Source: a virus
Lineage: Duplodnaviria; Caudoviricetes
Virus record (IMG/VR): IMGVR_UViG_3300021256_000057
Location: 64,001-128,000 of that record
Direction: 5' to 3' (one strand)
Length of the DNA stretch: 64,000 nt
In this document: in pieces, positions 36,731-51,908 of the stretch
Numbering within the stretch: position 1 is the stretch's first letter
Layout: each line of letters opens with the position of its first letter
The notes under the pieces: generated by a model
The model's input: only the letters and a program-made list of their open reading frames with translations
The model's database searches: none
What the model was told of the DNA's origin: nothing
Position numbers and translations under genes: made by a program

Positions 36731-36848
36731 ACTATCACGCCTTTCGATTTGTGCTATCTATTATAACGAGTGTGAAAGAATCAAAAAGATGCAGTCCTAT
36801 TGAACTGCATCTATATGTAAATATTCTGTGAACGTATACACATCTATA

Positions 36849-36877
36849 TTGACTTATGTGGATTTATGTGCTATAAT
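36849..36877 (+). promoter_or_regulatory. sigmaA promoter for the HTH / AcrVA2-like operon
   Basis: TTGACT-17 nt-TATAAT with extended -10 TG. Confidence 0.75.
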
Positions 36878-36908
36878 AAAGAAAACATGTAGAAAGGTGG
36901 CGATAGCC

Positions 36909-37649
36909 ATGACAAAAGAGACTGCATATTTGTTAGGGCAGGTCTATGGAAAACTGATCAGCCTTAACAAGAACTGGGACACGATGGCCAGACTAACGAT
37001 CGCTATGAGAAAGCCCATGCGAGCTATCACGGAGCTGCACTTGAATGCGATTCGTTCCAAATTTTTCACTGATGATGTACAAGAGTACATCATGTTCCGT
37101 CTTGCAGATGTGTCTGTAGATGATGCTATGAGCGATATGAACACAGAGACATCCAGCTCGTTCATGCTCGGTGTGCATTCCTTCGATCTGGATGCCCCAC
37201 AGCTCATCAAGAACATAGATCTAACACAGGAAGAGATCGCAGAAAAGCTCGGTGTGAGCGCAAACACTGTATCGAGATGGAAACTCGGTACATCATCGCC
37301 ATCTCAAAAGACGCTGTATAAATTGCAGAAGCTCAGGATCGATCCGTTCGGCTTTGAGAGATATGAGGATATGGTGCTGATAGACGAGGTATGGCATGAT
37401 CCGTCTCATCCGTATGAACTTATCGTAGAGGATCGTGGCAACTTCTATGTCTATGGTAAGCCGTTCATCAAATCCCCTAGTAGCAGTCAGTTCCGCAGAT
37501 TCCCCACAAGGCCGGTCGAAAAGGCAAGACCCGGATATCTCCATAGGTATGGCATCTGGGCAAGAGGATTATGCAGAAGAAAGGATGTAGATCTGTATGA
37601 AAAAGAAAAAGCCGGATCCGATGCCTCTGGCAGCGATCAAGAACCTTAA
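36909..37649 (+). CDS. XRE-type HTH protein (central HTH)
   Basis: LTQEEIAEKLGVSANTVSRWKLGTSSP; ATG at 36909 after AAAGGTGG. Confidence 0.8.
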   Translation: MTKETAYLLGQVYGKLISLNKNWDTMARLTIAMRKPMRAITELHLNAIRSKFFTDDVQEYIMFRLADVSVDDAMSDMNTETSSSFMLGVHSFDLDAPQLIKNIDLTQEEIAEKLGVSANTVSRWKLGTSSPSQKTLYKLQKLRIDPFGFERYEDMVLIDEVWHDPSHPYELIVEDRGNFYVYGKPFIKSPSSSQFRRFPTRPVEKARPGYLHRYGIWARGLCRRKDVDLYEKEKAGSDASGSDQEP

Positions 37650-38514
37650 AGAGAACCATCCTGATGTATGGCGGAAGGTCGATGCTAATGATATCAATTC
37701 TGCGGTAGAATATGCAAAGTCCCATAACATCCCTGAATCCGCATATATTATCGCTGCTCTGTCTCGGTGGAGACTCAGCAAGCAAATCTTTGAGGTCAAT
37801 GAGGAGCTGTGCAAGATCCTCATGAACTCGGATAAACTTGATGAGGAGATACCGAACGAAGTGATCAATAGATTGATCTACAACTCCTTTTACGTCAAAC
37901 TACCAGAGAATTTCTTGACAGTACGTTCTGTAAACGGAGAATCTATGGATCTTCCCATGGATGGCTTCTTCTACAATGTTATAAATAAATCCATCCTGAT
38001 CGTTATCATGTACAGTACAGGACACACCCAGAGCCTCGGATTTGACATCTACAATGACTTGTCGCTTAGGGCATGTATGGAGAAGCATATGACTGCTAAC
38101 AGTGATGTATACAAGACAGTCAACTTCTTCTTACAGATCGTTCTATATCTCTGTGCGGATAATGCGGACATTGAGGAAAACAAAGTTCAGCGCTCTGTGT
38201 ATAAGCAAAGTCCTATCGTAACAGATAGATACTCAGAAGTCCGTAAATGGGATGTTGGTTGGAGATATGGCAATGCTATTAAAAAGATGAGATCAAGTCA
38301 GGCTACGGATGGATCACACGCAGAAGCATCTCATGTTGGATCTCATACCAGGAAAAGGACACATGTCCGCAGAGGACACTATCATCATTACTGGGTAGGA
38401 TCTGAGAAGTCTGGTAACAGGGAGCTGATCTTAAAGTGGACATCACCAGTGGTAGTCAACGCAGAATACGAAAACACTGCAACTATCCACAGAGTTATCC
38501 ATAAAGTGAAGTAA
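37597..38514 (+). CDS. AcrVA2/FinQ-like protein
   Basis: WRLSKQIF, LYLCA.NADI, WDVG.RYG, RTHVRRGHYHHYWVG..LKW. Confidence 0.6.
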   Translation: MKKKKPDPMPLAAIKNLKENHPDVWRKVDANDINSAVEYAKSHNIPESAYIIAALSRWRLSKQIFEVNEELCKILMNSDKLDEEIPNEVINRLIYNSFYVKLPENFLTVRSVNGESMDLPMDGFFYNVINKSILIVIMYSTGHTQSLGFDIYNDLSLRACMEKHMTANSDVYKTVNFFLQIVLYLCADNADIEENKVQRSVYKQSPIVTDRYSEVRKWDVGWRYGNAIKKMRSSQATDGSHAEASHVGSHTRKRTHVRRGHYHHYWVGSEKSGNRELILKWTSPVVVNAEYENTATIHRVIHKVK

Positions 38515-38515
38515 G

Positions 38516-38560
38516 TAAAAAATGGGAGCTGTGCATCATAACAGATGTACAGCTCCTTTT
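38516..38560. terminator. bidirectional terminator between convergent genes
   Basis: GGAGCTGT..ACAGCTCC stem flanked by A and T tracts. Confidence 0.7.
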
Positions 38561-38613
38561 CTATATCAATAAGAAATACCCTGCTAGTGTTATCCAGCAG
38601 GGCATTGTCTTCA

Positions 38614-39042
38614 TCAAAGACCTAGTTTGTTTAGAATCCAAGCAGAAATGTTCGGAGCTGCATCTTCGGCCACCATGCGCTTGATCTGTTCAAGCTGCGC
38701 GTTGGTGACCGAGATCGACAATACAGTCTTCTCACCATCTTCATCAACATCACCGAAAATCTTTTCATACGCATCTACATCGAGATACTCCTCAGCCCAC
38801 TTCTTTGCGTCTGCGTATGACATCGGCATGATGCGCTCACCAGGAGCCCACTCAGACATACCAGCGGATTCAGCGTACTTGCTACCAGCATGGCCATATC
38901 CGTGCAGGAAGAACTCGCCACCGCGCTTGCGGTAGAGTGTCTCACAGTAGTAGTCATACTGTGATTTGGAGCTGTGCGTGTACTGTGCCAATTCCTGTGC
39001 TGTATCGGTGTCATACCGTTTTCCGTTAATAATCTTTTTCAT
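38614..39042 (-). CDS. conserved Firmicute-phage protein (possible C-terminal RHH)
   Basis: MKKIINGKRYDTDTA..ETLYRKR.GEFFL. Confidence 0.75.
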   Translation of the reverse strand: MKKIINGKRYDTDTAQELAQYTHSSKSQYDYYCETLYRKRGGEFFLHGYGHAGSKYAESAGMSEWAPGERIMPMSYADAKKWAEEYLDVDAYEKIFGDVDEDGEKTVLSISVTNAQLEQIKRMVAEDAAPNISAWILNKLGL

Positions 39043-39064
39043 TGCATGTGATCCTCAATTCCGA

Positions 39065-39301
39065 TTATTCTCTAAAAAAGTCAACTCTGGAATTTCTGAA
39101 CGTTTTCGTAGTACCATCGGCGAATGTTACGATCGTGTACTCGTTGTATTCGTCGATTTCATCAATACCAGTGTTATGAGCTTCATCTGCACTGAGCTTT
39201 TTCACATCGAACGACCAGACATCCTTGTAAATACGCTCTTCGAGCTTCTTGCTTTCTACATTGTACTTGCAGCCATCGTAGATCTTTACCTTGATAACCA
39301 T
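39065..39301 (-). CDS. hypothetical protein
   Basis: SD GGAGGTGG. Confidence 0.7.
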   Translation of the reverse strand: MVIKVKIYDGCKYNVESKKLEERIYKDVWSFDVKKLSADEAHNTGIDEIDEYNEYTIVTFADGTTKTFRNSRVDFFRE

Positions 39302-39330
39302 TGTACCACCTCCATTGTTTAATGTGCGTC

Positions 39331-39750
39331 TTACTGCATCAGCAGTTTCTTGATGATCTCCTGCTTGTGTTCTTTGATAGCATTCTTCGTATCTGCGGGC
39401 AGGATAGCCCAGCCAGGAACCAGGATGTGCTCACCGTCCTCGTGCATCCTAAGATGGTATTTTTCAATCAGCTCCTCGACATAGGACAGCGGAGTATGCT
39501 CTGCGATCCATCTCTCTGCGATCCAGCTCTCTGCGGTCTGTATGCTGTGCATCCCTGCGGTGATCTCGTCCCAGCCGCCCCACTCAGCATCATCGAGCAT
39601 CTCGATAACCTCACCGTCCCACAGGCGCTCTACCTTGTCACAGATCTCGTCATCGCTAAGGTCAAAGTCGATCACGGCAGTGCCACGGTCATCGTCCATC
39701 AGGATGAGATAGTTCATCGTGTTATCTTGGCCTACAAACAGTCTTCTCAT
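39331..39750 (-). CDS. hypothetical early protein
   Basis: SD AGGAGG; promoter at 39811. Confidence 0.7.
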   Translation of the reverse strand: MRRLFVGQDNTMNYLILMDDDRGTAVIDFDLSDDEICDKVERLWDGEVIEMLDDAEWGGWDEITAGMHSIQTAESWIAERWIAEHTPLSYVEELIEKYHLRMHEDGEHILVPGWAILPADTKNAIKEHKQEIIKKLLMQ

Positions 39751-39810
39751 GATATGCCTCCTATTTCATGCAGATCTTCTGGGCATCCGCTAAACCCTAT
39801 CCTCTATTAC

Positions 39811-39839
39811 ATTATAGCATACTTTTGCATAAATGTCAA
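39811..39839 (-). promoter_or_regulatory. consensus sigmaA promoter
   Basis: TTGACA-17 nt-TATAAT with TG. Confidence 0.85.
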
Positions 39840-39957
39840 TCCATATAACAATTATGTAAATGTATATATGTAGAAAACAGAGTGAATATTTGTGCAGCAT
39901 GCTAATAGCAAAACCCGGCTACAGTCTAAACCATAGCCGGGTGTTTTGTCACTGTGT

Positions 39958-40335
39958 TTACTCGTTGAGCATCTTCTTGAGGTCCTCGATGGACATGTTC
40001 ATCAGTGACTGATCCTCCTTGGCAGCGATGATCTCTGCGATACGCTGCTTCTTCTGCTTCTCCTGTGCGAGAGCCAGCTTCTTATCATTAGCGTCCTTCT
40101 TCGTAGCAAATACATCTTTGACGATCTCGATCTTGATGTCTACAGATGTGGGAGCTGTACCAACGTCAAGGAGAGAGTCACCAGACATCGCTTGCTTCTC
40201 CTTATTCAGGGACTTGTACAGAGCATCCAGCTCCTTCATGTTGAGATGGTACAGATCCTCTACACAGAGGTTTCCCTTATCGGTCTTGAACCGAAGTGCC
40301 TCCATTGCTGCGATCTTATAGATGTTAGTCTCCAT
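39958..40335 (-). CDS. conserved phage coiled-coil protein
   Basis: LRF.T.KG.L.VEDL..L. Confidence 0.75.
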   Translation of the reverse strand: METNIYKIAAMEALRFKTDKGNLCVEDLYHLNMKELDALYKSLNKEKQAMSGDSLLDVGTAPTSVDIKIEIVKDVFATKKDANDKKLALAQEKQKKQRIAEIIAAKEDQSLMNMSIEDLKKMLNE

Positions 40336-40353
40336 TTGTAATACTTCCTTTCC

Positions 40354-42414
40354 TTAGAATTGAATCTTAAGCACCCTTTCAGTAGCGCCGATCACCTTTA
40401 CAACAAGCTCTGCCCTCTTATCGGTAGCAAAGCCAAGTCCAGACAACTGATCATCTGTGTCAGCTACACGCATCTTGTTACTGATAGCCTGCATCACACG
40501 ACGATTCTCATTCAGCTCCTGCACAAGATACTCGTTGAAGATACCGGAGGGATTCTCATCGTTCACACAGCCATCGAGCATGAAGAACACATGCTGATGA
40601 CCTACGTTCTTCTCCGCGGTAGACCAGTGGTTAGGAGAGTACATGATGCTTGTAACAGGTACAAACTTGTTGGTGTCGATAGACCACTTTGTCTTGCTGG
40701 CAACCCTTGTGTTATCAATTGCAGGGATGATCGAGAAGTTACCAGACTCATCAAGGAGAACATCTGCAACTACAACATCTTCATGGTATCTCATAGAATG
40801 CGGATAGTCGAAACTGTAGATCTCACCATCCATCTCGATCTCTGCGCGAAATCCATGCATTACAGATCCGCTAAACTGATTTACATAGAAGCTGTACACG
40901 CCAGGTGTCATTCGAGACTTGTTAGGCCATGTAATATTCTCTACGGCTGTCTTATCGACACCGCGAACATCAGATCTGGGATCGATAATGTCAACATCGA
41001 GATTTCCACCTGTCTTATAATCCTCCTTAGCGCCAAAGTAGATCTCAGCGCCATCAGGTGTACGAGCATGTGCATCAAGGTCATAGCTATCGTCCTGACT
41101 CTCGTTCCACTTGATAGAGAAGCGCAGAGCACCCTCTACATTACCACCGAACGACTTTACCTTTTCCTTGAAACTGTCGGTAACGTTGCCTGTGTACGCC
41201 CAGGAGAAGTTATTGCCCCACTTAAACATAGACTTGCTATCCTTGTTTACAGGAGCGATAAGAGATACAAAGTTACCAGAGTGCTTATTCTCGACATACG
41301 CTTCGATTCTTGTTGCAGTAGGGACGATGTCCTTGATGAACTTTTCAATAGAGACTGTTTCCACTCTATCAAACTTTTTGGGTTTGGTAGTAACATCCTT
41401 TGCAAGTGCATCAAAGATGGTTTCAGCTCCTTTGATCCGGTGTGCAGCAGAGCGGTCTGTAAAGAGGATGTCATTCACAGTGATGTCATCCAGAGTAGAA
41501 AACCGCCTAGGCAGAGAGTCCATATAGCCCATGTCAGTGATCTTCTTCTCAGCATCCTTTCGCATCCGCTCTGTGAAGATAGGCTTAGGATGCTTGTATA
41601 CCGTAGGATCTGTGATAGCTTCGTAATTCCTTACTGCATCCTCAAGATCCCTGCCGTTGCTGATGTCAATAAGAAGTACGCCGATCGAATGATTCTTGAT
41701 ACGGACAACTGGTGTATTAGCCAGCTTCGTGGAAGTGTACCATGCGTACAGATCTTTATGCCGTGAATCGAAGTTATCATACTCTGTTCTACACCACCAG
41801 AGCCTCTCAAGTGCCTTTTTCCACTCATTACCTCTATAGATAGAGTTGTCAGCGATCAGCTCCAAAACGGTATCGATCGCATCGATGCTGATCTCCTCTA
41901 GAGATCGCTTGAATACTTCCTTGGACGTTCTGAGTTCATTCAGTTTTGTGTTCTTCTCATCCGATCTTACGACATGCTTGCCAGCTAGGTCAATGAAGAA
42001 ATGATCGAATCTGAAATGGCTTACCTTTTCCAGAATCTCGAAGTTATGATGGCATCCGATCTTACTGAATGATGACAGGAATACATCACGAACATCATGC
42101 CTATGGACGAACTCAGACATTGCCTTGATAACAGGTCCATAGGTTTCATCATCGATATCGAAGTCCCAAATGGATACCATTTCACTTCCGATGATAGCTA
42201 CAACAGCTCCGATGTTCTTGATGAAGCCGCGGCAGCAAGAGCAGTCATGCTCTGTTCTTGTACGGAAGATCTTGTTTGTACCCTTTGGGAACGAACTGAG
42301 ATAGGTGTTCCACATCTCATCCTTGTTGACACCCACCTCAAAGAGGTAGTTTTGGTCGCGCATGACCTCATCAAAGTGCTTGATGAGCATGTCCCTCATT
42401 TCTGTAAACAGCAT
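40354..42414 (-). CDS. conserved large phage protein with YfaP/DUF2135-like domain
   Basis: HDCSCCR, DLDAH, LDVDI, AVENITW. Confidence 0.75.
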   Translation of the reverse strand: MLFTEMRDMLIKHFDEVMRDQNYLFEVGVNKDEMWNTYLSSFPKGTNKIFRTRTEHDCSCCRGFIKNIGAVVAIIGSEMVSIWDFDIDDETYGPVIKAMSEFVHRHDVRDVFLSSFSKIGCHHNFEILEKVSHFRFDHFFIDLAGKHVVRSDEKNTKLNELRTSKEVFKRSLEEISIDAIDTVLELIADNSIYRGNEWKKALERLWWCRTEYDNFDSRHKDLYAWYTSTKLANTPVVRIKNHSIGVLLIDISNGRDLEDAVRNYEAITDPTVYKHPKPIFTERMRKDAEKKITDMGYMDSLPRRFSTLDDITVNDILFTDRSAAHRIKGAETIFDALAKDVTTKPKKFDRVETVSIEKFIKDIVPTATRIEAYVENKHSGNFVSLIAPVNKDSKSMFKWGNNFSWAYTGNVTDSFKEKVKSFGGNVEGALRFSIKWNESQDDSYDLDAHARTPDGAEIYFGAKEDYKTGGNLDVDIIDPRSDVRGVDKTAVENITWPNKSRMTPGVYSFYVNQFSGSVMHGFRAEIEMDGEIYSFDYPHSMRYHEDVVVADVLLDESGNFSIIPAIDNTRVASKTKWSIDTNKFVPVTSIMYSPNHWSTAEKNVGHQHVFFMLDGCVNDENPSGIFNEYLVQELNENRRVMQAISNKMRVADTDDQLSGLGFATDKRAELVVKVIGATERVLKIQF

Positions 42415-42429
42415 TGAATTAGCCCTCCA

Positions 42430-42621
42430 TTATAGTTTTTTCGCATATTTGATTGTGATAGTATTAACTGACTTTAAATACGAAACTGTCACCTCGTAAC
42501 CATTGCTGATCAACATATGGACGATGTCTTGATAGCCTTTTTCGTATTCGATCCTCATAACCCCTTGATCTTTTTCCATTGTTTCACCTCCTATCATTTG
42601 ATCATGTTCTTTATGATGCAC
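42430..42621 (-). CDS. small hypothetical protein
   Basis: Probable start 42579 after AGGAGGTGA. Confidence 0.55.
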   Translation of the reverse strand: MHHKEHDQMIGGETMEKDQGVMRIEYEKGYQDIVHMLISNGYEVTVSYLKSVNTITIKYAKKL

Positions 42622-43547
42622 ATCACAGTCCTTGAACAGATCTTACTGAAATTATCTACATTGTCTACAGTCTCCGGCTCTTCCTTGATGCAGTCATCGT
42701 ATACGAGCTTTGGAGCTGTTTTAGCAATAATTCCAAGGTCGTGTTCGTCCCATTCTTCACGGAGCTGCCCTGCATCTATCATCTTCTCGATGATCTTTGA
42801 TACTCTCCGCTCAGTAATGATCGTAGCGGCCAGCTCCTTATCTGCTTGCTCCTTTGCAGCTACATCAGGATCCTTTGGTGCTTTGGACTTGTGTGCCTTT
42901 GTCTCTGCAAACTCATCCGTTACGATTTTAACGTAGATAGGTCTATCACTGTTAGTAGGTAGTCCAAGTCTATCTTGAGACTTGATGACAATGCCCTCAC
43001 CAGTAGGCTCTGCATCAAGATGTGTTACACCACAAAAGCGGCTTACATCATCCCATCCAGTAAACTTACAAACATCAAGAACTGGTACAAAGTTGATGTG
43101 TGTGCAACCGCATACTCTTTGCAGTGCCTTGTACATAGCATTTGCATCCTCGATAGAGATGTACTGTTCTGTATCACAGTCCCATACATCAAACATGTAG
43201 AACTTATAGTATCTGTTATCTGGATACTTGATCGTATGCGGTGCGAGCCACTCACCAAATATGATATATCTTCCATACTCTGTGATCTCATTCAGACGTG
43301 TAGCAGGGATCTGCTGTGCCCACTCGTAGAAGCCGCGAAGAGGTTTATCTTCGGATAGCTCCGTGTTTCGGGAAAACGCCTTTACAATGCAGTTACCATC
43401 ATCATCTACATTGGTAGTAAACGATGCGTTAGCCCCATCGACCTTTTCCTCGATGACGATATTCTCACCGATTGCAAATGCATCTTTGTACTTATCCTTG
43501 AGACGTTCGATGTCCATATACTTCTTCATTTGTGTTACCTCACTCAA
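42594..43547 (-). CDS. ATP-dependent RNA ligase (Rnl2-like)
   Basis: EEKVDGAN (motif I), IFGEW, FYMFDV, EGIVIK, YVKIV. Confidence 0.85.
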   Translation of the reverse strand: MSEVTQMKKYMDIERLKDKYKDAFAIGENIVIEEKVDGANASFTTNVDDDGNCIVKAFSRNTELSEDKPLRGFYEWAQQIPATRLNEITEYGRYIIFGEWLAPHTIKYPDNRYYKFYMFDVWDCDTEQYISIEDANAMYKALQRVCGCTHINFVPVLDVCKFTGWDDVSRFCGVTHLDAEPTGEGIVIKSQDRLGLPTNSDRPIYVKIVTDEFAETKAHKSKAPKDPDVAAKEQADKELAATIITERRVSKIIEKMIDAGQLREEWDEHDLGIIAKTAPKLVYDDCIKEEPETVDNVDNFSKICSRTVMCIIKNMIK

Positions 43548-44268
43548 AAGTTATTCTGCTCTCGATGTAGTCTCTATCCTGCGTAAATATCGGTGTTTCG
43601 TAGTCGATCGACCATCCAAAATCCGACTTAACACAGCAGGCGCCTCTCTTTTGATAGTTGGAGAAGTCCATTCCCCAATTGATGCCTTTCTCTTGGAACA
43701 ACTTCTCTTGGATCTCATCCATGTTAAGACCGTGCATCTCTTTCTCAGAGAAGTTAGCGTGTCCCACGGACTGGATAGAGTTTCTGGTTGCATCCTGCTG
43801 TCTCCAGATAAGATAGTTTGTAACCTCGTCCCTTGGTAGCGTAAATGCTCTTGCATCAAATGTAGCACCAAGTGCAATAGCTTCTTTGTATGGAGTTGTA
43901 TCTGAAAATACTTCGCTGGAAAACGCTCGGTTGAATGCTAATGTAGCCATACTCGCAGATACGCTCACGAGCTTTTGGAGTTCGTTTCCAAACCAAGGCT
44001 GCCTATCAATAGTCTGATAGTCACACAGTACAAAAGAAATCTCGTCAGACTGAGTGTAGCCAAGTACACACCCAGAGATGTTCTTACACAGATACTGCAT
44101 GGTACTTGTCATGCTTCTCTCGATAGTTACATCAAACGGCTTATCCATGTGTCTTGTGAACGTGTGGAACGCTCTTCCATCGATTCGGATGATAACAGGG
44201 GATCTACGCATCAGACTGATCTTGCTGCATTCCTCATACTGCTTCATTCGTTCTCCAAGTGTACTCAT
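43540..44268 (-). CDS. thg1: tRNA(His) guanylyltransferase Thg1 / Thg1-like 3'-5' polymerase
   Basis: IRIDGRAFHTFT, YTQSDEIS, FDARAF, WRQQDATRNS. Confidence 0.93.
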   Translation of the reverse strand: MSTLGERMKQYEECSKISLMRRSPVIIRIDGRAFHTFTRHMDKPFDVTIERSMTSTMQYLCKNISGCVLGYTQSDEISFVLCDYQTIDRQPWFGNELQKLVSVSASMATLAFNRAFSSEVFSDTTPYKEAIALGATFDARAFTLPRDEVTNYLIWRQQDATRNSIQSVGHANFSEKEMHGLNMDEIQEKLFQEKGINWGMDFSNYQKRGACCVKSDFGWSIDYETPIFTQDRDYIESRITFE

Positions 44269-44283
44269 AATATCACATCCTTT

Positions 44284-44562
44284 CTACACAGAAACTTCAC
44301 GCCGACCAGCGGAGAACTCACCGATAAGATCATCCGACCGTACCCATGCAGGCTCAAACTTACCTACGCAAGAGAAGCAGAGCGGACCGGTGTAGATCTT
44401 TACGATGTCATACTCTCGTGCGCACTCATTTTTGAGAGCATCATTGTACTCCGATACCGCCCAGCATCCGCCGGACTGACCTACGAGCATACCCTTGACG
44501 ATGACACACAAGGTCTTGTCACGGAGCTGTACGAAACGTCCATCTTTCAACAAATCTTTCAT
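44284..44562 (-). CDS. hypothetical protein
   Basis: LKDG..VQLR..YDIVKIY phage motif. Confidence 0.7.
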   Translation of the reverse strand: MKDLLKDGRFVQLRDKTLCVIVKGMLVGQSGGCWAVSEYNDALKNECAREYDIVKIYTGPLCFSCVGKFEPAWVRSDDLIGEFSAGRREVSV

Positions 44563-44642
44563 ATAATACCTCCATTTTGATATCTGTTGTATGATCGACC
44601 ATGTGATCGCTCACATACTATAACGAGTTCACATCATATGAT

Positions 44643-44930
44643 TCAGCCTACTCTATCCGCAGCACATACATTCTGTATGTACCTGTGATCGCGCTCATAG
44701 GTCTCTGTGAAATAGGCCAGTTCCTTCTCACGAAGTTCATCACGCTCGTGCTTGTAGAACTCGGTAGCAAACTTGTGTCTCTGGTAGTTACGCTCACCGA
44801 TGTAAGTCAGGACTGCACACAGCAAGCTGATGATGATGAACAGAACGTTATCAAATCCGGTCGCAGCGAATATGATAGAGTTTACGATGCTGATGATGAC
44901 GGTCAGCCGGTGCCACATAAAATGTTTCAT
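44643..44930 (-). CDS. small membrane protein
   Basis: Two hydrophobic segments at the N-terminus. Confidence 0.6.
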   Translation of the reverse strand: MKHFMWHRLTVIISIVNSIIFAATGFDNVLFIIISLLCAVLTYIGERNYQRHKFATEFYKHERDELREKELAYFTETYERDHRYIQNVCAADRVG

Positions 44931-45592
44931 TTCGATACTTTCCTTTCTCTTGGTGGTGTTGTCAAAGCATCACTGAGATCCCACCCTCTCTCAATGCGCT
45001 TGCAGAACAATGTATTGGAGATGTTATAAGCTGCACACATCTCTGATTGGCTATCATAATGATTTCCAAAATGGTCTGTCGCTGGCTTTGTTAATGGTCT
45101 TGTCTCTTTTGTTAAGGCGTCCGCCTTTGACCAGTTCAACTTAATACGGCATGCATATTGCACTGGTTTTACACCGTAATGATCACACATAGACTTAATT
45201 GATGGGAACTGATTTCCTAAATGATCTTGTGTTGGTGTCCCCTTATGCCCCCGGTGTTTCTTGTATGTTCGCTTCCTGAAATGCCATTTTTCTGCGCTAA
45301 ATGCTTCTTCAATGGTAGCGCCTTGTTTTAGACGATATACCACTGTACCACGATTGATGCCGAGATTATTGCAAGCATCAGTGATAGATGCATATACACA
45401 TCCATTGACTGTTACTAGATCTGATACGCATGGTTTTCTTCTATACGATGCATGTCTAATGCATCGTTCTACTGCGGCATCTACAGAGTATCCATCCTTT
45501 AGTTGTCGAAGGAATAAATAGTATTTGATGCCATATTCTTGACACAGCTCCATTGCGGAGGCATATGTCTTATCATTATATGTGATCTTCAT
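44927..45592 (-). CDS. tandem small HTH (NUMOD-like) DNA-binding repeat protein
   Basis: Four repeats G..Y.S...MC..YG.......R...GW....AL. Confidence 0.7.
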   Translation of the reverse strand: MKITYNDKTYASAMELCQEYGIKYYLFLRQLKDGYSVDAAVERCIRHASYRRKPCVSDLVTVNGCVYASITDACNNLGINRGTVVYRLKQGATIEEAFSAEKWHFRKRTYKKHRGHKGTPTQDHLGNQFPSIKSMCDHYGVKPVQYACRIKLNWSKADALTKETRPLTKPATDHFGNHYDSQSEMCAAYNISNTLFCKRIERGWDLSDALTTPPRERKVSK

Positions 45593-46041
45593 GCAGTTTC
45601 CTCCCCTAGTGACAACATCAGTCTTGCACCATAGGTAGGATACTCAGGATCCAGACCGCCCACGATGCGAAACCTCGATAGTTCAACGTTCATACCTTTG
45701 TCGAGGAGGGTGGCTACTACTGCTGCCACTTTTGCAGGCAGATAACCGATCTTAGCACGATACTTGCTATGTACTACTGCGTATACAGCTACCGCATTAG
45801 AATCGTACTCGTTGGACTTCTCACGGCAGAGCTGAACTGCCACATCAGGATAGCATACAGCTACCTTATGCAGGACACGCTGACGGTTCTCGAACGTAAC
45901 ACCAGCGACCCTAGTCTCGATGTTATCGGCCTTGATAAGTCTCCATGCGGTACGCATCGCATTGCTCTGCACATATCCGCACTTGTGAAACAGATAGTTC
46001 GCGATCATCATGACCTTTCTGCGCATCTCCTTAGTGATCAT
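45589..46041 (-). CDS. HIRAN domain protein
   Basis: VAGVTF, RE..NEYDSNAVAV, IGYLP. Confidence 0.85.
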   Translation of the reverse strand: MITKEMRRKVMMIANYLFHKCGYVQSNAMRTAWRLIKADNIETRVAGVTFENRQRVLHKVAVCYPDVAVQLCREKSNEYDSNAVAVYAVVHSKYRAKIGYLPAKVAAVVATLLDKGMNVELSRFRIVGGLDPEYPTYGARLMLSLGEETA

Positions 46042-46089
46042 GTTTTCTCCTCCTCTCAGAATATATAACGAGTGACGGTATTAAAATTC

Positions 46090-46242
46090 AAATTTGGTAT
46101 TTGACTTGTGTTTCTTGGTTATCTCCATCCTTCTTCTACAGTATACCACACATCAAATCATTTGTCAATGTCTGCAAACACATTTGACTATGTTATCTGG
46201 CAAAATCGTAACTTTGCACAAAACATATCAAATGATATTGTT
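46090..46242 (-). repeat. diverged promoter/leader repeat, copy 1 (copy 2 at 51757..51908)
   Basis: Shared ATTTGGTATTTGACTTGT..TTGGTTATCT, TCATTTGTCAATG, TTTGCACAA, ATCAAATGATATT; contains TTGACA-17-TATACT at 46140-46168. Confidence 0.8.
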
Positions 46243-46316
46243 TATATTGCCAAAAACAACTCAAATGCTTGCATCTATTGAATAATTCTGATATAATAAT
46301 AGGAGGAGGTGGTCAT

Positions 46317-46613
46317 ATGGCAATCACAGAATTGTTGAAAACACTTAGGGTAAAAAAGGGATACACGATGAAGCAGGTCGCAGAGCTGTGTGGTATGCAT
46401 GAACAGGTATATCGCAACTATGAAAATGGTGCTCGAAACCCAGGTGTTCCGGCTCTCTGCAAATTTGCAGATTTGTATGGTGTAACAGTAGACTTCTTGC
46501 TGGGTCGTGAGAGTAAGGATGCAGATGTGTCTAATGACAAGTATGTCAATCTACCAGATGAGGTCAAGTGCATCATAGATGCGATAGTGGATTATGCAAA
46601 TAACAAATCATAA
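46317..46613 (+). CDS. XRE-family transcriptional regulator
   Basis: LKTLR..KGYT..QVA..YENG.RNP..AD.YGVTVDFLLGR; ATG at 46317 after AGGAGGAGGT. Confidence 0.9.
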   Translation: MAITELLKTLRVKKGYTMKQVAELCGMHEQVYRNYENGARNPGVPALCKFADLYGVTVDFLLGRESKDADVSNDKYVNLPDEVKCIIDAIVDYANNKS

Positions 46614-46841
46614 GGACAGCTCCGATGTAGATCTGCACGAGCAGCTTGTTCGGACGGTAGCTGGTACACTAGCTATCGAGGGCATCGAGCTGAGTGAGAA
46701 CAGCAAGCGTAACCTAGAGAGATACGCAAACGGTGAAGCCGATGCACAGCAACTGCTTGAAATGGGGTCAACCGCAATCCCACCGGATTTAGACGGTGGG
46801 TTAAGGTTGACAAATGGTATCAAAAATGATATACTGTAATT

Positions 46842-47246
46842 ATGAATAAATGGAAATAAAAAAACAGACATAAATATTTGTTGCAGTATCATGTGATATT
46901 TGTTTGTAAATACAGAAAGAAATTACTTTCAGCAAAAGAAATTTCAGATGATATAAAGCGATTGTCTTGCGAAATATGTCAAAAACATAATATAACTATC
47001 AAATATATGTGGACAGATAAAGACCATATACATTACATGATAGAAACAGAACCAACAATTTCGATAAGTAAATCTGTAAATTTAATGAAAAGTTATACAA
47101 CGTATCACATTTGGCAAAATCATAGTTATTATCTGTCAAAACATTTTTGGAAAGAACGTACATTTTGGACTGACGGATATTTTGTTTGCAGCGTTGGAAA
47201 TGTATCGGAGAAAATACTCAAATAGTATGTAGAAAATCAAGGATAA
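46842..47246 (+). pseudogene. tnpA: IS200-like TnpA with two nonsense codons
   Basis: DHIH (HUH) present; TAA at 46857 and TAG at 47223 just before catalytic YVENQ. Confidence 0.88.
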
Positions 47247-47261
47247 GGGGGTGGGCAGTAA

Positions 47262-48359
47262 ATGTTAAAAGCATACAAATACAGAATATATCCAAATAAA
47301 GAACAGATGATGCAGATTATAAAGACATTTGGCTGCTGCCGATTTGTATATAATCAAATTCTGGCCTATCGAAAAAATCAATACGAAACAGAAAAGAAGA
47401 GCATGAGTAAAACTGCCTGTAACAATTACTGCAATCAAGTATTAAAAGCACAGTATGAGTGGCTGAAAGATGTGGATAAATTTGCCTTGACAAATGCGAT
47501 TTACGATATGGATACAGCTTATCAAAAATTTTTCAGAGAGCACACAGGTTATCCAAGATTCAAAAGCAGACACAATAAAAGAAAGTCATATACAACAAAT
47601 TTTACAAATAATAATATAGAAGTATTTGATAACAGCGTAAAGCTGCCGTATCTGAAAAATGTAAAAGCAAAAATACACCGAAAGTTTTCAGGTCAAATAA
47701 AATCTGCAACGATTTCACAAACACCAAGCGGAAAGTATTTTGTATCTGTTCTTGTAGAAACTGAACATAATGCACTTGCACATACTGATAAGAACATCGG
47801 AATTGATTTAGGAATAAAAGATTTGTGCATTACTTCCGACGGCAAAAAATATGAAAATCCTAAAACTTTGCGTAAATATGAGAAAAGGCTTGTAAAAGAA
47901 CAGCGGAAACTTGCACACAAGAAAAAATTAAGCAAGAACAGAGAAAAACAAAGAATCAGAGTGGCAAGACTTCACGAAAAAATAACAAATATCAGAAAAG
48001 ATTATCTGCATAAAATTTCTCATGAGATTATTAGCGAAAACAAAGTGATAGTTTCTGAAAATTTGCAGATAAGCAATATGATAAAAAATCATCATCTTGC
48101 AAAAAGCATAGCAGATGCATCATGGTATGAACTTACAAGGCAACTGGAATACAAGGCTTTATGGAACAACAGACAGTATGTAAAAGTTGATACGTTTTAT
48201 GCAAGCAGTCAGTTATGTTCCTGTTGCGGCTATCAGAATCCCAAAACCAAGGATTCATCTGTAAGAAATTGGATATGTCCAAACTGTGGAGAAAATCATG
48301 ACAGAGATATCAATGCTGCTAAAAATATACTTTCAGAAGGATTAAGGCTGTTAGCCTAA
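47262..48359 (+). CDS. tnpB: RNA-guided endonuclease TnpB
   Basis: [37 protein letters not shown]. Confidence 0.95.
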
Positions 48360-48488
48360 AATAGTACGATATAGGGCAGGGACTGTCCGAATTTACGCCT
48401 GTGGAGTTAGTAGGTTACGAGGACTATGAAACAGGAAGCCCATTGGCTTTAGACAATGGGTAGTTCACGAGATCAAGAACCGATACAA
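48330..48488 (+). ncRNA. predicted TnpB omegaRNA; guide about GAGATCAAGAACCGATACAA
   Basis: Inferred from the right-end position; boundaries approximate. Confidence 0.55.
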
Positions 48489-48533
48489 ACAATAACAAAA
48501 CGGAGCTGCACGACATGTACAGCTCCGATTTCT

Positions 48534-49547
48534 TTATTTTACTTTGTGGCTTGTAACATCGATCTCACCAGCAGCTCCATTTACGAAGCACTCCGATACC
48601 CATTTCACAACAAGTTCTTTGCTATCTCTCTTACCTACCCAGTACCGATGCCAATGTGCTCGGCGTAGATGCGGTCTAACTGTGCCGGTAGATTCTGTAT
48701 GGTCTCTAGATGCACCGAGACTTCCCTTTGTCCACTTACGGAATGCAGCTCCAAATCGTTCGCCTACATGATACTCTCTACCAGGTTTATTAGCTGGATC
48801 ACGATGCTTTTGTCTCTTGTAGCTTGCGTTCAGTGCTTTTGAAGTTGTAGTCTCACGGATGTCAGGAGCATATGAACACATGTATTCAAGAGTGTGCAGC
48901 AAAAGACTCCATAGTTTCTCGCGAACTTCAAAGAGATCAGGATCATCTACTCTGCTGATCTTCAATTGGCTCTCTACAAATTCTTCTGCTGTGCAGTCAA
49001 TGTCTTCATCTTTCAGGAATAGTACATGTGACGCACACATATATTCTTTGTCGAACATGTTGTGAAAAGATGCTCTGATCATCCAATAATTCCCGTACTG
49101 CTTGACGTTTACGATTCCACCTGCTACATTTGTTTTGTCGACCGCATATTGACAGTTTGCATAATCAATAGCGAATGTATCGACTGGAAGTCTTGATAGC
49201 ATGCCTTTAAGCATATTGATGTTCTGAGTGTCCATCAGTTCTTTTGTGAAATCGGAATCAAAAACGTAGATCTGCTTCTTCCTTTCCCACTGTGTATTCA
49301 GGAAATACTGATTCAGAGCACGGAACATCTGGTCGTAGCCATTCCTATCACAGTTCTTGTATACAAGATTCAGGAATCCAGTATGGTCGTGGCCATCTGC
49401 GATAGGGATTCCATTTGCCATAGCATAATAAATGTAAATAGCATCTTCCATCTCAACAGATGGTGTGGTTTTCAATATGTGGTCTGTAGCTTCAAACTTA
49501 TTCTTGAACTCTCGTATGCTGGCTCTCAGATCAAACATAGACGACAT
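48534..49547 (-). CDS. AcrVA2/FinQ-like protein (paralog of 37597..38514)
   Basis: WERKKQIYVFD, LEYMCS..PDI, VG.RFG.A, RPHLRRAHWHRYWVG..VKW. Confidence 0.65.
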   Translation of the reverse strand: MSSMFDLRASIREFKNKFEATDHILKTTPSVEMEDAIYIYYAMANGIPIADGHDHTGFLNLVYKNCDRNGYDQMFRALNQYFLNTQWERKKQIYVFDSDFTKELMDTQNINMLKGMLSRLPVDTFAIDYANCQYAVDKTNVAGGIVNVKQYGNYWMIRASFHNMFDKEYMCASHVLFLKDEDIDCTAEEFVESQLKISRVDDPDLFEVREKLWSLLLHTLEYMCSYAPDIRETTTSKALNASYKRQKHRDPANKPGREYHVGERFGAAFRKWTKGSLGASRDHTESTGTVRPHLRRAHWHRYWVGKRDSKELVVKWVSECFVNGAAGEIDVTSHKVK

Positions 49548-49557
49548 CCCCCATCCG

Positions 49558-50064
49558 TTACAATCTCATTGTGTCATCTGTATCATTGCATCTCTGCATC
49601 TGATTCATCAGCACTGGTATCCACTTGTTACCTAGGTTTTCATCTCGAATCACTTGTATGCTGTTGAGGCATGTCGATTTTAGATGAATCATGTCAATGA
49701 TGTCTTTTGCGTATCGTTCGTTATCAAGGACTAAATAGTATACTGTTAAGAACAAAAGAAGCTCGTCCTGATCCTCTACATTCAAAGAACAGAATCGAAT
49801 AGATGACAGAATCGCATCTTTCGGAGATTTGAGTTCATTCGTAGTGATAACCATGTATTCTCTCAATGCGTCCAATCGGCTATTCAACGGTTCAATGAAT
49901 GTAGATGGGTGGTGTCCCTGTATCATAATCATTACATACAGTACATTAGTATTATTGTATAAGAAATTGCTGCGCATACATTTGTTTAATACTCGAAGTC
50001 TATACCTAGCACTTAGGCCTCTAGGATATATCAGATATTCATTCAATTTCCTCACCTCTACCAA
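49558..50064 (-). CDS. hypothetical protein ending TMRL
   Basis: ORF; start uncertain. Confidence 0.55.
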   Translation of the reverse strand: MVEVRKLNEYLIYPRGLSARYRLRVLNKCMRSNFLYNNTNVLYVMIMIQGHHPSTFIEPLNSRLDALREYMVITTNELKSPKDAILSSIRFCSLNVEDQDELLLFLTVYYLVLDNERYAKDIIDMIHLKSTCLNSIQVIRDENLGNKWIPVLMNQMQRCNDTDDTMRL

Positions 50065-50131
50065 CTATAACGAGTAATTATGACATGATTGGAGCTGCCC
50101 TATATTCCGGACAGCTCCAATTGTTTCTACA

Positions 50132-51292
50132 TCAGAGCCGCAAATCGTTTCTGGAGCAGAGCTTACCGTGCTTACGCAGGAGATCCAGCAGTTCTGCTCT
50201 GATAGCTACATTCTCGATGTGGTCGAGGTTGTCCTTTACCACATCAAGGAAATCCTGCTCGAACTCATCCGTGGTATCGTTCTGGAACATCCTATAGATG
50301 TCAAAGGCCTCTCTGGAAGTTGTGAACACGCAGGAGAGATCCGCAATCAGGCAGGAGTAGGCGATGTTCTTATCGTTAGATACTTCTCGAACGCACTTTC
50401 TCCACTCATCGATGACCTTGTAGCAATCTGCAATATTGCTAACGCATGGTACAGCTCCGTGTGTACGGATACAAACAACTGCGTTTCTGTATCTTACCAT
50501 CTCCAGATAGTGGTCGCTCACATTGATATACCGGAGCACAGACTTTGCATCTCTATAAGCTGCGTTCTGCGCAGCTTTTAGGGCGTCCTTGTAGTAAGGA
50601 GAAGTAACAGGGATCACACACTCATCGGTCTCGAAATAATCAGTCATGCTGTCAGACCCGTTGGTTGGGTCCAGCTCAGCCGGGATGTGCCCATCATAAT
50701 CCTTTGCATGGAGCTGGATCGGGCTCTTGTCATCGGTGCATCTATACCAGCATCGGATGATGTTACCACCATCTACCTTGATGCCGTTGTAGTAGAACTT
50801 GATACCCTTCTTCTTGTCGCTCATCTTCGGAGCTGCACAGTCCGCACCAGACCTCATGAGCCGATTTACTACACCTTGGTAGAAGTTGTACTTTCTCTGT
50901 TCCAGCTCTCTGTTGGCTTCATCGTAGTAGATTTTATCTTCCAGTCTGTCATGGATCATGATGCACTCTTTGTTGAAGTATTCTATGATACCATGAACGT
51001 TCTTGATGCCGACTACCTCGATCTTTGCGTTTGCCGCGTTCCACTGCTTTGCTTCTGCGTTCTTTGCATAGTTGTTGGTGTACGAGTGGATCGGCCAGAA
51101 GTTCGTCGTGTTCTTCGAGATCGCGAGACTTCCGTTCTTGCAGAGCCTATGCAGACACAAGTCAGACCCTCGATAGCCGGGTACTTCAGAGGAGTGTGCT
51201 ACGAAGTACAGGCCATTATCAGTCTTGAAGTAGGCACCTGTGATCTGCACCACATCGCCTACTCTGATTTCGTTTCCATTTTTGTCTTTCAT
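50132..51292 (-). CDS. multi-domain hypothetical protein (YopX-like N-terminus) ending DLRL
   Basis: MKDKNGNEIRVGDVV; IKFYYNGIKV..DSMTDYFE. Confidence 0.75.
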   Translation of the reverse strand: MKDKNGNEIRVGDVVQITGAYFKTDNGLYFVAHSSEVPGYRGSDLCLHRLCKNGSLAISKNTTNFWPIHSYTNNYAKNAEAKQWNAANAKIEVVGIKNVHGIIEYFNKECIMIHDRLEDKIYYDEANRELEQRKYNFYQGVVNRLMRSGADCAAPKMSDKKKGIKFYYNGIKVDGGNIIRCWYRCTDDKSPIQLHAKDYDGHIPAELDPTNGSDSMTDYFETDECVIPVTSPYYKDALKAAQNAAYRDAKSVLRYINVSDHYLEMVRYRNAVVCIRTHGAVPCVSNIADCYKVIDEWRKCVREVSNDKNIAYSCLIADLSCVFTTSREAFDIYRMFQNDTTDEFEQDFLDVVKDNLDHIENVAIRAELLDLLRKHGKLCSRNDLRL

Positions 51293-51304
51293 GATGATCT
51301 CCTT

Positions 51305-51757
51305 TCACTTATCGTACTCTTTCCAGCAATTGGGAAGAGGGCATATATCGATACGATTTTCTATAAGCGTGTATTTATTTCCATCTACGATCGTTCTGTA
51401 ATAATAGTTCCGACCATCATCAGACGCATACTTAGCAAACTTCTCGAACCAGTACCGCTGTTTGTATGTCATGAACTGGTTGTGACGAAGATCCTTGCAG
51501 AATGCTCTGAACCACTCGTTCTTTGGCTGATTTGCGGTTGACAGGTAGCACACGAGTTTCCGCCTTGGTGCAATCATCGCATTGCGAAATGAGCACGCTT
51601 CCTGATCCAATTTAGCCCAGATGCCGTTATCCTCCACAGCATCTGCACGTTCTTGCATGAGGTTATATTCCTTTTCCATGCGTTCGATGTCTTTCTTGAT
51701 CTTTGCTTTGCTCATCATGTATATCACCACCACTCTATTCATATAACGATTTCTCAT
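51305..51757 (-). CDS. hypothetical protein
   Basis: Probable start near 51718. Confidence 0.65.
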   Translation of the reverse strand: MRNRYMNRVVVIYMMSKAKIKKDIERMEKEYNLMQERADAVEDNGIWAKLDQEACSFRNAMIAPRRKLVCYLSTANQPKNEWFRAFCKDLRHNQFMTYKQRYWFEKFAKYASDDGRNYYYRTIVDGNKYTLIENRIDICPLPNCWKEYDK

Positions 51758-51908
51758 ATTTGGTATTTGACTTGTATCTTTTGGTTATCTATAACCTTCT
51801 ATTATAGTATAGCACAAATCATATCATTTGTCAATGCATATCAACCCATTTGATATGCTTTTCAAAGAAAATCGACGGTTTGCACAATTTCCATCAAATG
51901 ATATTATT
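51757..51908 (-). repeat. diverged promoter/leader repeat, copy 2
   Basis: See 46090..46242; TTGACA-17-TATACT at 51806-51834. Confidence 0.8.

Follow-up and report, generated by a model that had tools for sequence, protein, structure and literature searches.

Two divergent AcrVA2-like paralogs of a large phage are candidate target-specific gene silencers

One 184-kb gut/rumen phage carries two intact genes of the AcrVA2/FinQ family. We analysed a window of 64,000 nucleotides of this phage, in which both genes are found. Both belong to the AcrVA2-like family (PF26125) and are kept by selection. We favour, with moderate confidence, a reading in which they are target-specific silencers, copy 1 as an autoregulated moron-like cassette and copy 2 in a separate operon. 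A preliminary description had claimed two AcrVA2/FinQ-like paralogs, and both reading frames proved to belong to the family:

37597..38514, plus strand: AcrVA2-like copy 1 (P0001), 305 aa; matches phrog_6160, AcrVA2 in the PDB and its fold
48534..49547, minus strand: AcrVA2-like copy 2 (P0002), ORF of 337 aa; matches phrog_6160, AcrVA2 in the PDB and its fold

The start of copy 2 is most likely the second ATG, at 49538. It would give 334 aa, as in a 94%-identical homologue.

Family, fold and conserved residues

The two copies are homologous to each other (BLASTP E 2e-15, 24% identity over ~270 aa). Both match phrog_6160 (1e-35 and 5e-27), and PF26125 "AcrVA2-like" is carried by 80/80 homologues of both copies. 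The preliminary description had proposed a profile and structure search against AcrVA2. With phmmer against PDB sequences, AcrVA2 (7ci1) was matched by copy 1 (E 9e-6) and by copy 2 (E 3.3e-11, residues 78-324). The fold of copy 1 matches AcrVA2 with a Foldseek E of 1.6e-11, a TM of 0.6 and a VIA Z of 18.7 over 245 residues. Likewise, copy 2 gives a Foldseek E of 3e-11 and a VIA Z of 12.9 over 235-247 residues. AcrVA2 is the sole significant fold match and covers the full length; the next best Z is 2.3 for copy 1 and 2.6 for copy 2. Confidence in the structural models is low (pLDDT <50) immediately ahead of the HxR block, at residues 240-249 and 275-287.

In the tree, SH-aLRT support is 98 for the clade uniting both copies and 99 for each subclade. 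The copies are anciently diverged paralogs, separate lineages in one Bacillota-associated subfamily. Both are under purifying selection, with dN/dS of 0.04 (copy 1) and 0.09 (copy 2).

Both translations present the motifs W..KQI[FY], VG.R[YF]G.A, R.H.RR.H[YW]H.YWVG and EL..KW, as first described. A fifth, given as L.Y[LM]C...DI, needs a small correction: four residues precede DI, not three (LYLC....DI in copy 1, L.YMC....DI in copy 2). The family mark PHxRRAHWH also holds, as H-x-R-R-x-H-W/Y-H in both copies, and it covers residues essential in AcrVA2. Alanine mutants of AcrVA2 H286, R288 and H291 lose activity and still bind the target. The equivalents of these residues show little or no variation in either lineage, and across AcrVA2, FinQ and the two paralogs. 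In 39 homologues, copy 1 H256, R258, H261 and H263 never vary; copy 2 W87, D97, H293, R295, H298 and H300 are conserved. The equivalent of AcrVA2 W79 is found in both copies. That of D89 is aspartate in copy 2 and asparagine in copy 1, a natural minority variant (8/39). Distant homologues of copy 1 retain 9-24% identity in the middle domain and 20-33% in the N-terminus, against 35-47% in the C-terminal block.

AcrVA2 of a Moraxella bovoculi prophage (PDB 7CI1/7CI2; bioRxiv 10.1101/2022.11.29.518452) resembles both copies in Pfam family, in its full-length three-domain fold and in the conserved W79 and H286/R288/H291. It is also phage-carried and of similar size (322 aa against 305-337 aa). However, the copies are only 14-24% identical to it and fall in a distinct Bacillota-associated clade. 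Conservation with AcrVA2 does not extend to their N-terminal and middle recognition domains, and they have no AcrVA1-like partner. A dedicated HTH partner is present only at copy 1, whereas the Moraxella phage context has no annotated HTH. FinQ, a fertility inhibition protein of IncI1 and F-like plasmids, is homologous to the copies and shares their C-terminal motif block; it gives the family a precedent for a non-CRISPR target hit by lowering mRNA. It differs in its weak similarity to the copies (tblastn E 1e-5), its separate clade and its setting: it is plasmid-borne in Enterobacteria and targets F transfer genes.

The copy 1 cassette and its HTH partner

Copy 1 lies in a self-contained cassette of 1.7 kb, on the plus strand within a minus-strand region:

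36847..38564, plus strand: copy 1 cassette (promoter, HTH gene, AcrVA2-like gene, terminator), with boundaries from the relatives L251 and L007
36849..36877, plus strand: SigA/sigma-70-type promoter with extended -10 (TTGACT-17-TG-TATAAT), 11/12 matches
36909..37649, plus strand: XRE-type HTH gene (P0087), 246 aa, HTH_3 E 1e-10
38524..38557, plus strand: intrinsic terminator, a 14-bp stem then a T run, at the cassette end

A plus-strand unit with its own sigmaA promoter behind an HTH gene had been proposed, and its promoter and terminator are now located. Homology to the cassette-less L251 stops at 36846, 2 nt ahead of the -35. Homology to the cassette-bearing L007 spans 36814-38564 and then jumps to 39958. 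The cassette is found in L007, L252, L253 and a P0006 relative, and is missing in L251. The promoter and the entire 5'UTR are near-identical in L007, despite saturated silent sites in the coding sequences. We sought an operator-like palindrome at the cassette promoter and found none.

The start of the HTH gene at ATG 36909 is preceded by a good RBS (AAAGGTGG) and gives 246 aa, as in relatives. A GTG at 36828 was rejected since it lies upstream of the promoter. The HTH of P0087 is central (aa 99-141), flanked by N- and C-terminal domains. The gene overlaps copy 1 by 53 nt here and by 47-59 nt across relatives. A search of 5.8 billion proteins gave only 5 homologues of P0087; wherever the context could be read, an overlapping AcrVA2-like gene came next. 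The partner is linked to a copy 1-type gene in 6/6 contexts of this clade. Nevertheless, an HTH_3 gene is upstream in about 5/92 non-redundant loci of the AcrVA2-like family. The "aca-like" arrangement suggested earlier is therefore real and strictly conserved as a trait of the copy 1 clade, but not of the family.

In acr-aca operons and in HTH-first loci such as Listeria AcrIIA1, a strong host-type promoter drives an HTH gene co-transcribed with an anti-defence-type gene. The copy 1 cassette shares this promoter type, the co-transcribed HTH, compactness and patchy distribution. It differs in that its HTH protein is large (246 aa), upstream and endowed with two extra domains, and its gene overlaps the effector gene. 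The likeness is one of layout, and repression is putative. Phage morons are self-contained promoter-gene-terminator insertions, described for lambdoid phages. Similarly, the cassette begins 2 nt ahead of its own -35 and ends just past its own terminator; it runs opposite to its neighbours, and only some close relatives carry it. Unlike a moron, it holds two genes, including its own putative regulator.

The copy 2 operon

A separate operon of four genes, which has its own host-type promoter and its own terminator, ends with copy 2:

51949-51923, minus strand: terminator preceding the operon promoter
51806..51834, minus strand: operon promoter (TTGACA-17-TG-TATACT)
49558..51757, minus strand: three orphan genes of 150, 386 and 168 aa, upstream of copy 2 and co-oriented with it
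48501..48527, minus strand: intrinsic terminator of copy 2, an 11-bp stem then TTTTGTTATT

Searches of the three orphan genes against Pfam and PHROG gave no match. The 168-aa gene, separated from copy 2 by 10-19 nt, is hypervariable (48% identity to a relative, versus 92-95% for its neighbours). A 31-nt core of the operon promoter recurs once, at 46140-46170, before a HIRAN operon. The operon has no XRE-HTH partner gene.

Proposed mechanism and rival readings

By homology to AcrVA2, each copy is most likely a polypeptide-specific gene silencer. Silencing by mRNA destruction during translation has one precedent in the family, AcrVA2 itself. A 2026 review of Marino et al. assigns ribosome association to the C-terminal part and describes binding of the N-terminal target peptide. 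In our copies, the conserved basic module at the C-terminus (V-G..G, then H-x-R-R-x-H-W/Y-H..W.G) would keep the protein docked to ribosomes during translation. Binding the nascent N-terminus of a single chosen target would fall to the rapidly diverging N-terminal helical and middle beta-sheet domains. A putative host RNase would then destroy the target mRNA before translation finishes. Copy 1 would travel in a mobile, moron-like cassette that is driven by a host-type promoter and most likely autoregulated by its dedicated XRE-HTH protein.

The recognition domains of the two copies have almost nothing in common, so the copies most likely have two different targets, probably proteins of host defence or of rival mobile elements. 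The earlier suggestion that the targets could be other defence proteins agrees with the proposal of Marino et al. for the family (bioRxiv 10.1101/2022.11.29.518452).

A narrower reading, possible although we consider it unlikely, is that the copies silence a key protein of rival phages or plasmids (exclusion) and not host defence. FinQ, the other studied member of the family, acts on a plasmid and not on a defence system; it lowers the mRNA of F-plasmid transfer genes. The moron anatomy of the cassette (own host-type promoter and terminator, inversion, presence or absence among relatives) is consistent with such competition. The phage also encodes both a tyrosine integrase and a serine recombinase, which makes lysogeny plausible. 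The reading applies especially to the copy 1 cassette, if expressed from a prophage. Nevertheless, nearby genes (RNA ligase, Thg1-like, HIRAN) resemble counter-defence genes rather than exclusion genes. The molecular mechanism would be the same as in target-specific silencing of defence proteins; only the target differs.

That either paralog, or both, is a genuine anti-CRISPR silencing host Cas12a, as AcrVA2 does, seems improbable. Both belong to the AcrVA2 family, and AcrVA2 also inhibits LbCas12a, from a Lachnospiraceae bacterium. Rumen and gut Clostridia are the source of several Cas12a orthologues and also the likely host group of this phage, judging from the Bacillota relatives in the tree and from IS copies in Clostridia genomes. 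However, the clade of both copies is far from AcrVA2 proper, with unalignable recognition domains, and the presence of two divergent paralogs suggests that at least one has a target other than Cas12a. Four Bacillota genomes bearing relatives gave no Cas12a match, in a search whose control was silent and on genomes that are incomplete. According to Marino et al. (bioRxiv 10.1101/2022.11.29.518452), Cas12a is lacking where most family members are found.

Even less probable is a toxin-antitoxin-like or abortive module, with copy 1 as a growth-arresting mRNA-decay effector restrained by the HTH protein. The HTH-first overlapping layout, constant in every relative, fits such a pair too, as do the own promoter and terminator, the strict co-inheritance and the patchy distribution. 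P0087 also has a weak generic HTH likeness to antitoxins such as MqsA, HigA and HipB, but these matches do not reach the threshold and would be expected of any XRE HTH. An HTH gene is upstream in only ~5% of family loci, and copy 2 has no such partner. Moreover, AcrVA2 expression affected essentially one transcript, and toxicity was not reported.

Finally, a complete IS element adjoins copy 2:

46762..48468, plus strand: IS200/IS605 element of 1,707 bp, with tnpA and tnpB
46878-47225, plus strand: tnpA, Y1_Tnp E 1e-29
47262-48359, plus strand: tnpB, OrfB_IS605 and Cas12f1-like_TNB
46320..46839, plus strand: small pair of a 97-aa XRE-HTH gene (HTH_3 E 2.6e-14) and a VbhA-like small gene (VbhA E 1.5e-5)

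Copy 2 is convergent with tnpB, as the preliminary description stated, but only because the element inserted there; the two genes are 175 bp apart. L251 is contiguous across the site, a clean insertion without target duplication. The element is missing at this site in relatives ~91% identical on both flanks and in an 81% relative. Full-length 1,707-bp copies with 73-74% identity occur independently in two Clostridia genomes. In the ancestral layout, the XRE-HTH/VbhA-like pair was convergent on copy 2; the junction shows that the IS replaced the 3' end of the VbhA-like gene, and relatives keep intact 97-aa and 58-aa genes. TnpB lies within ~4 kb in only 1/159 AcrVA2-like family loci. The element is a recent chance insertion, outside the AcrVA2-like system. 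TnpB is the evolutionary ancestor of Cas12, yet the proposed functional tie, for example copy 2 silencing TnpB, is largely refuted by this comparative context and has almost no chance of being right.

The AcrVA2-like family is large (~5,750 clusters at 50% identity) and previously described, large phages included. Both copies add new members to it.

The paralogs and their family

The phage genome carries two AcrVA2-like genes, named here copy 1 (P0001, 305 aa) and copy 2 (P0002, 337 aa), and no third copy was found in it. Their proteins are homologous (BLASTP E 2e-15, 24% identity over ~270 aa), and both match phrog_6160, whose function is unannotated. Nearly all the motifs that the preliminary description reported as shared were present in both translations, with a slightly different spacing in L.Y[LM]C...DI. 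The likely start of copy 2 is the ATG at 49538 (334 aa), which fits its ribosome-binding site (RBS) and the 334-aa homologues.

Sequence searches of the PDB with both proteins returned AcrVA2 (7ci1), the Moraxella bovoculi prophage protein, and nothing else. With phmmer, copy 2 matches 7ci1_A nearly end to end (residues 78-324, E 3.3e-11). Copy 1 matches it in C-terminal residues 213-289 (E 9e-6). Likewise, each of the 80 homologues of the paralogs, close or distant, bears a precomputed match to PF26125 'AcrVA2-like'. Family membership was read from these precomputed matches, and the Pfam release that we scanned directly is without the PF26125 model, which explains its empty result for both paralogs. 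NCBIfam and PADLOC scans gave nothing for either protein, and no mention of the accession PF26125 was found in the literature.

AlphaFold2 models were built on the homologue alignments (pLDDT 82.7 and 84.0). Foldseek found the AcrVA2 chains as the sole significant match of both models (E 1.6e-11 to 7e-11). With VIA-align, the copy 1 model superposes on AcrVA2 with Z 18.7 (rmsd 4.1, 245 residues aligned; next match Z 2.3). The copy 2 model reaches Z 12.9 (rmsd 4.5-5.4, 235-247 aligned; next match Z 2.6). Both models show the helical N-terminal part, the mixed middle and the beta-stranded C-terminal module of the AcrVA2 fold. The preliminary description had assigned both genes to the AcrVA2 family. 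The significant phmmer, Foldseek and VIA-align matches of the two paralogs, with the PF26125 matches of their homologues, bear this out.

The plasmid fertility inhibition protein FinQ is a further homologue, of low similarity. Hundreds of IncI/F plasmids carry annotated finQ genes that copy 2 matches weakly (E 1e-5). On IncI1 plasmids finQ adjoins trbA, and the paralogs lie in a 183.6-kb virus genome. Neither is a FinQ in the strict sense of a gene on a conjugative plasmid, beside transfer genes, that inhibits F transfer.

The family is large. A search with the A2 profile (E <=0.001, 1.84 billion representatives) collected 5,752 clusters at 50% identity. IMG/VR adds 247-312 relatives, and representative bacterial genomes from many phyla add 178. 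Previous work described ~1,800 AcrVA2 orthologues on plasmids, phages and megaphages (Marino et al., bioRxiv 10.1101/2022.11.29.518452). AcrVA2-like proteins in huge phages were noted earlier (Al-Shayeb et al.), and a Shewanella phage gene was previously annotated as AcrVA2. The two genes thus add new members to a family already known. At least 27 viral contigs of IMG/VR (77-150 kb, L106-L162) have a copy-1-type homologue 0.02-2.8 kb from one end, with transcription running inward; related contigs have it in mid-contig position. The terminal position could reflect either a true end of the genome or an assembly break common to these contigs.

Conserved residues and selection pressure

The C-terminal H-x-R-x-x-H of AcrVA2 (H286, R288, H291) is required for mRNA down-regulation. 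The substitutions H286A, R288A and H291A abolish activity and keep Cas12a binding, and W79A and D89A have moderate effects (Marino et al., bioRxiv 10.1101/2022.11.29.518452; the numbering of PDB chain 7ci1 is offset by one from these residue numbers). The H286A variant forms a stable trap for its target. The three H-x-R-x-x-H columns are invariant in a joint alignment of both paralogs, FinQ and an AcrVA2 orthologue, the Moraxella phage Mcat5 protein (E 7e-127 to 7ci1). In the copy 1 lineage, H256, R258 and H261 are invariant (39/39 sequences). In the copy 2 lineage, H293 is present in 39 of 41 sequences, and R295 and H298 in all 41. The equivalent of W79 is kept in both (W58 in copy 1, W87 in copy 2). 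The D89 position holds D97 in copy 2 and N68 in copy 1. We rejected this change as a sign of inactivation, since asparagine is a natural variant there in 8 of the 39 copy 1 lineage members.

Conservation is not uniform along the protein. Distant homologues show 9-33% identity in the N-terminus and the middle beta-domain, and 35-47% in the C-terminal block. This pattern would be expected if the C-terminus touches a universal partner and the remainder picks the target.

A tree of 106 sequences places both paralogs within one clade (SH-aLRT 98), which otherwise holds only metagenomic sequences and two Bacillota genomes. AcrVA2 and FinQ cluster outside this clade with Proteobacterial sequences. 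Because this was a quick LG+G4 search and its branches are long, we relied on strongly supported groupings only. Inside the clade, copy 1 and copy 2 fall into separate subclades (SH-aLRT 99 each), which means that they are old and not recent duplicates. Both are retained, in the same layout, by a relative of the phage at 81% identity (the P0006 carrier). Of ten further large viral genomes that encode a homologue, eight or nine do so once, and one carries two or three copies. Two copies per phage are thus uncommon, not unique.

Both genes are under strong purifying selection. The dN/dS value is 0.04 for copy 1 against its counterpart in the related phage L007, where dS is saturated, and 0.09 for copy 2 against that in the related phage L251. 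Positive selection was not found in any pairwise comparison: regional dN/dS is at most 0.23, with dS saturated for copy 1.

Transcription units and their surroundings

Copy 1 belongs to a compact plus-strand unit with the following features.

36849-36877 (+): promoter, near-consensus extended -10
36909-37649 (+): HTH gene, HTH_3 domain in mid-protein (E 1e-10)
37597-38514 (+): copy 1, overlapping the HTH gene by 53 nt, with its own RBS
38524-38557 (+): terminator with a 14-bp stem

The anatomy given earlier for this unit is right; a single promoter and a single terminator enclose the HTH gene and the AcrVA2-like gene that overlaps it. The HTH protein (P0087) starts at the ATG at 36909 (246 aa) and has the same length in all relatives; the GTG at 36828 is not its start because it lies upstream of the promoter.

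The unit is a discrete cassette at 36847-38564, as its boundaries show. Similarity to L251, which is without it, stops at 36846, 2 nt ahead of the -35, and similarity to L007, which has it, stops at 38564. L251 is otherwise ~90% identical on either side of the site. The cassette is also carried by two further relatives, L252 and L253, and by the P0006 carrier. Between the window and L007, the cassette has a dS of 1.7-3.0 (saturated), whereas its flanks have 0.4-0.7, which suggests that the cassette was exchanged by recombination. Despite the saturated dS in the genes, the cassette promoter and 5'UTR are almost identical in the two.

The HTH protein is rare, with only five homologues among 5.8 billion proteins. 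An overlapping AcrVA2-like gene follows its gene in 6/6 readable contexts, even at 54% and 58% identity. However, HTH_3 stands upstream of an AcrVA2-like gene in only 5 of 92 family loci, so the two genes are a clade-specific linked pair and not a signature of the family. A conserved upstream partner for the whole family was rejected: the same-strand neighbours of 110 loci, taken by crude ORF picking (the longest ORF on the plus strand whose end lies near the start of the gene), are 73 singletons and small clusters. In two other family loci with 61%-identity homologues, the upstream gene (L008:4498-5004, L009:1659-2123; 4-nt overlap) does not encode the HTH protein. Its product is Cys-rich (C.C.C...C.C) and zinc-ribbon-like, with a coiled coil, so the partner there was exchanged for another putative nucleic-acid binder. 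No similarity was found among this protein, the HTH protein and the 168-aa protein encoded upstream of copy 2.

As in acr-aca operons, the cassette joins an HTH regulator and an anti-defence-type gene in one transcription unit. Pfam, NCBIfam, PADLOC, PHROGs and Atlas gave only generic XRE-HTH matches for the HTH protein, and in the ESM Atlas these were generic HTH clusters below 0.9. We found no convincing inverted repeat or operator-like repeat overlapping the promoter, and the sole hairpin near it (36782-36817) is absent from L007. The 'aca-like' label proposed before is a reasonable but putative reading of the pair, which is strictly kept in its clade (6/6 contexts) and clade-specific (5/92). 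The simplest reading is that the HTH protein would act as an Aca-like autorepressor.

The overlap of the two genes (37597-37649, 53 nt; 47-59 nt in all relatives) spans an A-rich run (GAAAAAGAAAAAG), and copy 1 is in the +1 frame relative to the HTH ORF. The two genes are likely translationally coupled. A +1 frameshift within the overlap, which would fuse the HTH protein to copy 1, is judged unlikely, given the separate RBS and the conserved start of copy 1.

Copy 2 (48534-49547, -) is the last gene of a minus-strand operon.

51949-51923 (-): terminator preceding the operon
51834-51806 (-): strong promoter of the operon
between promoter and copy 2 (-): three orphan genes (150, 386 and 168 aa)
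48527-48501 (-): terminator of copy 2
46762-48468: IS200/IS605 element of 1,707 bp, tnpA (Y1 transposase) and tnpB, convergent on copy 2

The promoter and leader of this operon (~150 bp) are repeated before the HIRAN operon. The repeated module lies at 46140-46170 and 51806-51836 (minus strand), in ~150-bp similar stretches at 46029-46230 and 51754-51908, and reads CATTGACAAATGAT.TGAT.TGTG.TATACT. The window contains this module exactly twice, against a chance expectation of none. The terminators of both AcrVA2-like genes (38524-38557 + and 48527-48501 -) are hairpins on GGAGCTG...CAGCTCC.

The preliminary description had linked copy 2 to the TnpB beside it. This link failed. The tnpB gene belongs to an inserted element (Y1_Tnp E 1e-29; OrfB_IS605/TNB), and L251 is contiguous across the site, with ~91% identity on both sides. 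The junction against this empty site is clean and lacks a target duplication, a property expected of IS200/IS605 insertions. A small VbhA-like gene, itself 3' of a 97-aa XRE-HTH gene, had its last nine codons replaced by the element. Two Clostridia genomes each contain several full-length 1,707-bp copies (73-74% identity). TnpA with TnpB, the absent duplication and these independent copies identify a complete IS200/IS605 element. TnpB lies within ~4 kb of an AcrVA2-like gene in 1 of 159 family loci, so we rejected an association between them; the adjacency here is accidental. A host call through the element was also rejected, as a sample of 400 Clostridia genomes held only the 73-74% copies.

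The virus record is 183,567 bp long and complete (CheckV); the window spans its bases 64001-128000, where the minus strand carries almost all genes. The INPHARED collection holds no near relative of its DNA. Genes for a tyrosine integrase and a serine recombinase lie elsewhere in the phage genome, beyond the window, so a temperate lifestyle is possible. Neighbours of the two units include two large peptidoglycan hydrolases and, at 42594-46041 (-) between both AcrVA2-like genes, an RNA ligase, a Thg1-like enzyme (tRNA-His guanylyltransferase family), an I-TevI-like DNA-binding protein and a HIRAN protein. The ligase and the Thg1-like enzyme might together counter anticodon nucleases by tRNA repair.

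A variable island (38565-39957) lies between the cassette and the 125-aa and DUF8224 genes. In the window this island contains a pair of small orphan genes (142 and 139 aa); L007 has no such gene there, L251 and L252 have one each, and the P0006 carrier has three. The orphan genes adjoining each AcrVA2-like unit are hypervariable (dN/dS ~0.3 for both). The 168-aa gene (49558-50064, -) shares 48% identity with its counterpart in L251, where the neighbouring genes reach 92-95%. For the 191-aa gene (36155-36730, -), identity to the L007 counterpart is 44%, and the genes on the far side of the cassette reach 87-94%.

Possible targets and meaning

According to a 2026 review of Marino et al., AcrVA2 binds the nascent Cas12a N-terminus and recruits a cellular enzyme, so that the mRNA is degraded; its C-terminal part associates with ribosomes and polysomes. 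By analogy, the paralogs are most likely co-translational, polypeptide-specific mRNA silencers of two different targets. The foremost candidates would be host defence proteins; proteins of competing mobile elements come next.

A minority possibility is Cas12a itself. An AcrVA2 in the strict sense binds the N-terminal peptide of Cas12a (LSKT motif) and lowers cas12a mRNA and interference. The phylogenetic distance of the paralogs from AcrVA2 argues against assuming this target. A Cas12a search (TIGR04330) gave no match in the phage or in four Bacillota genomes with relatives, but the control genomes were equally silent, which makes this negative uninformative. AcrVA2 orthologues occur mostly in hosts without Cas12a, and other targets have been proposed (Marino et al.). 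Our findings agree with the predictions of the family's describers and do not depart from them.

AcrVA2 is so far the sole bacterial example in which a nascent polypeptide is recognised and its mRNA destroyed. The question for the field is what the thousands of AcrVA2 homologues target in hosts without Cas12a. This phage has two intact divergent copies whose effector module is shared and whose recognition domains are unrelated, each in a well-defined transcription unit. With two divergent copies and a cassette whose presence varies among relatives, it is a reasonable comparative system for targets and specificity, and its practical value is limited since the host may be uncultured. Tentatively, the two proteins might be silencers of different specificity against two non-CRISPR proteins of host defence or rival elements, one of them in a mobile cassette with an HTH autorepressor or co-factor. 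If true, this would be the first regulator-linked AcrVA2-like module, and the two copies would lend themselves, as a natural pair, to learning how target choice is encoded in the variable domains.
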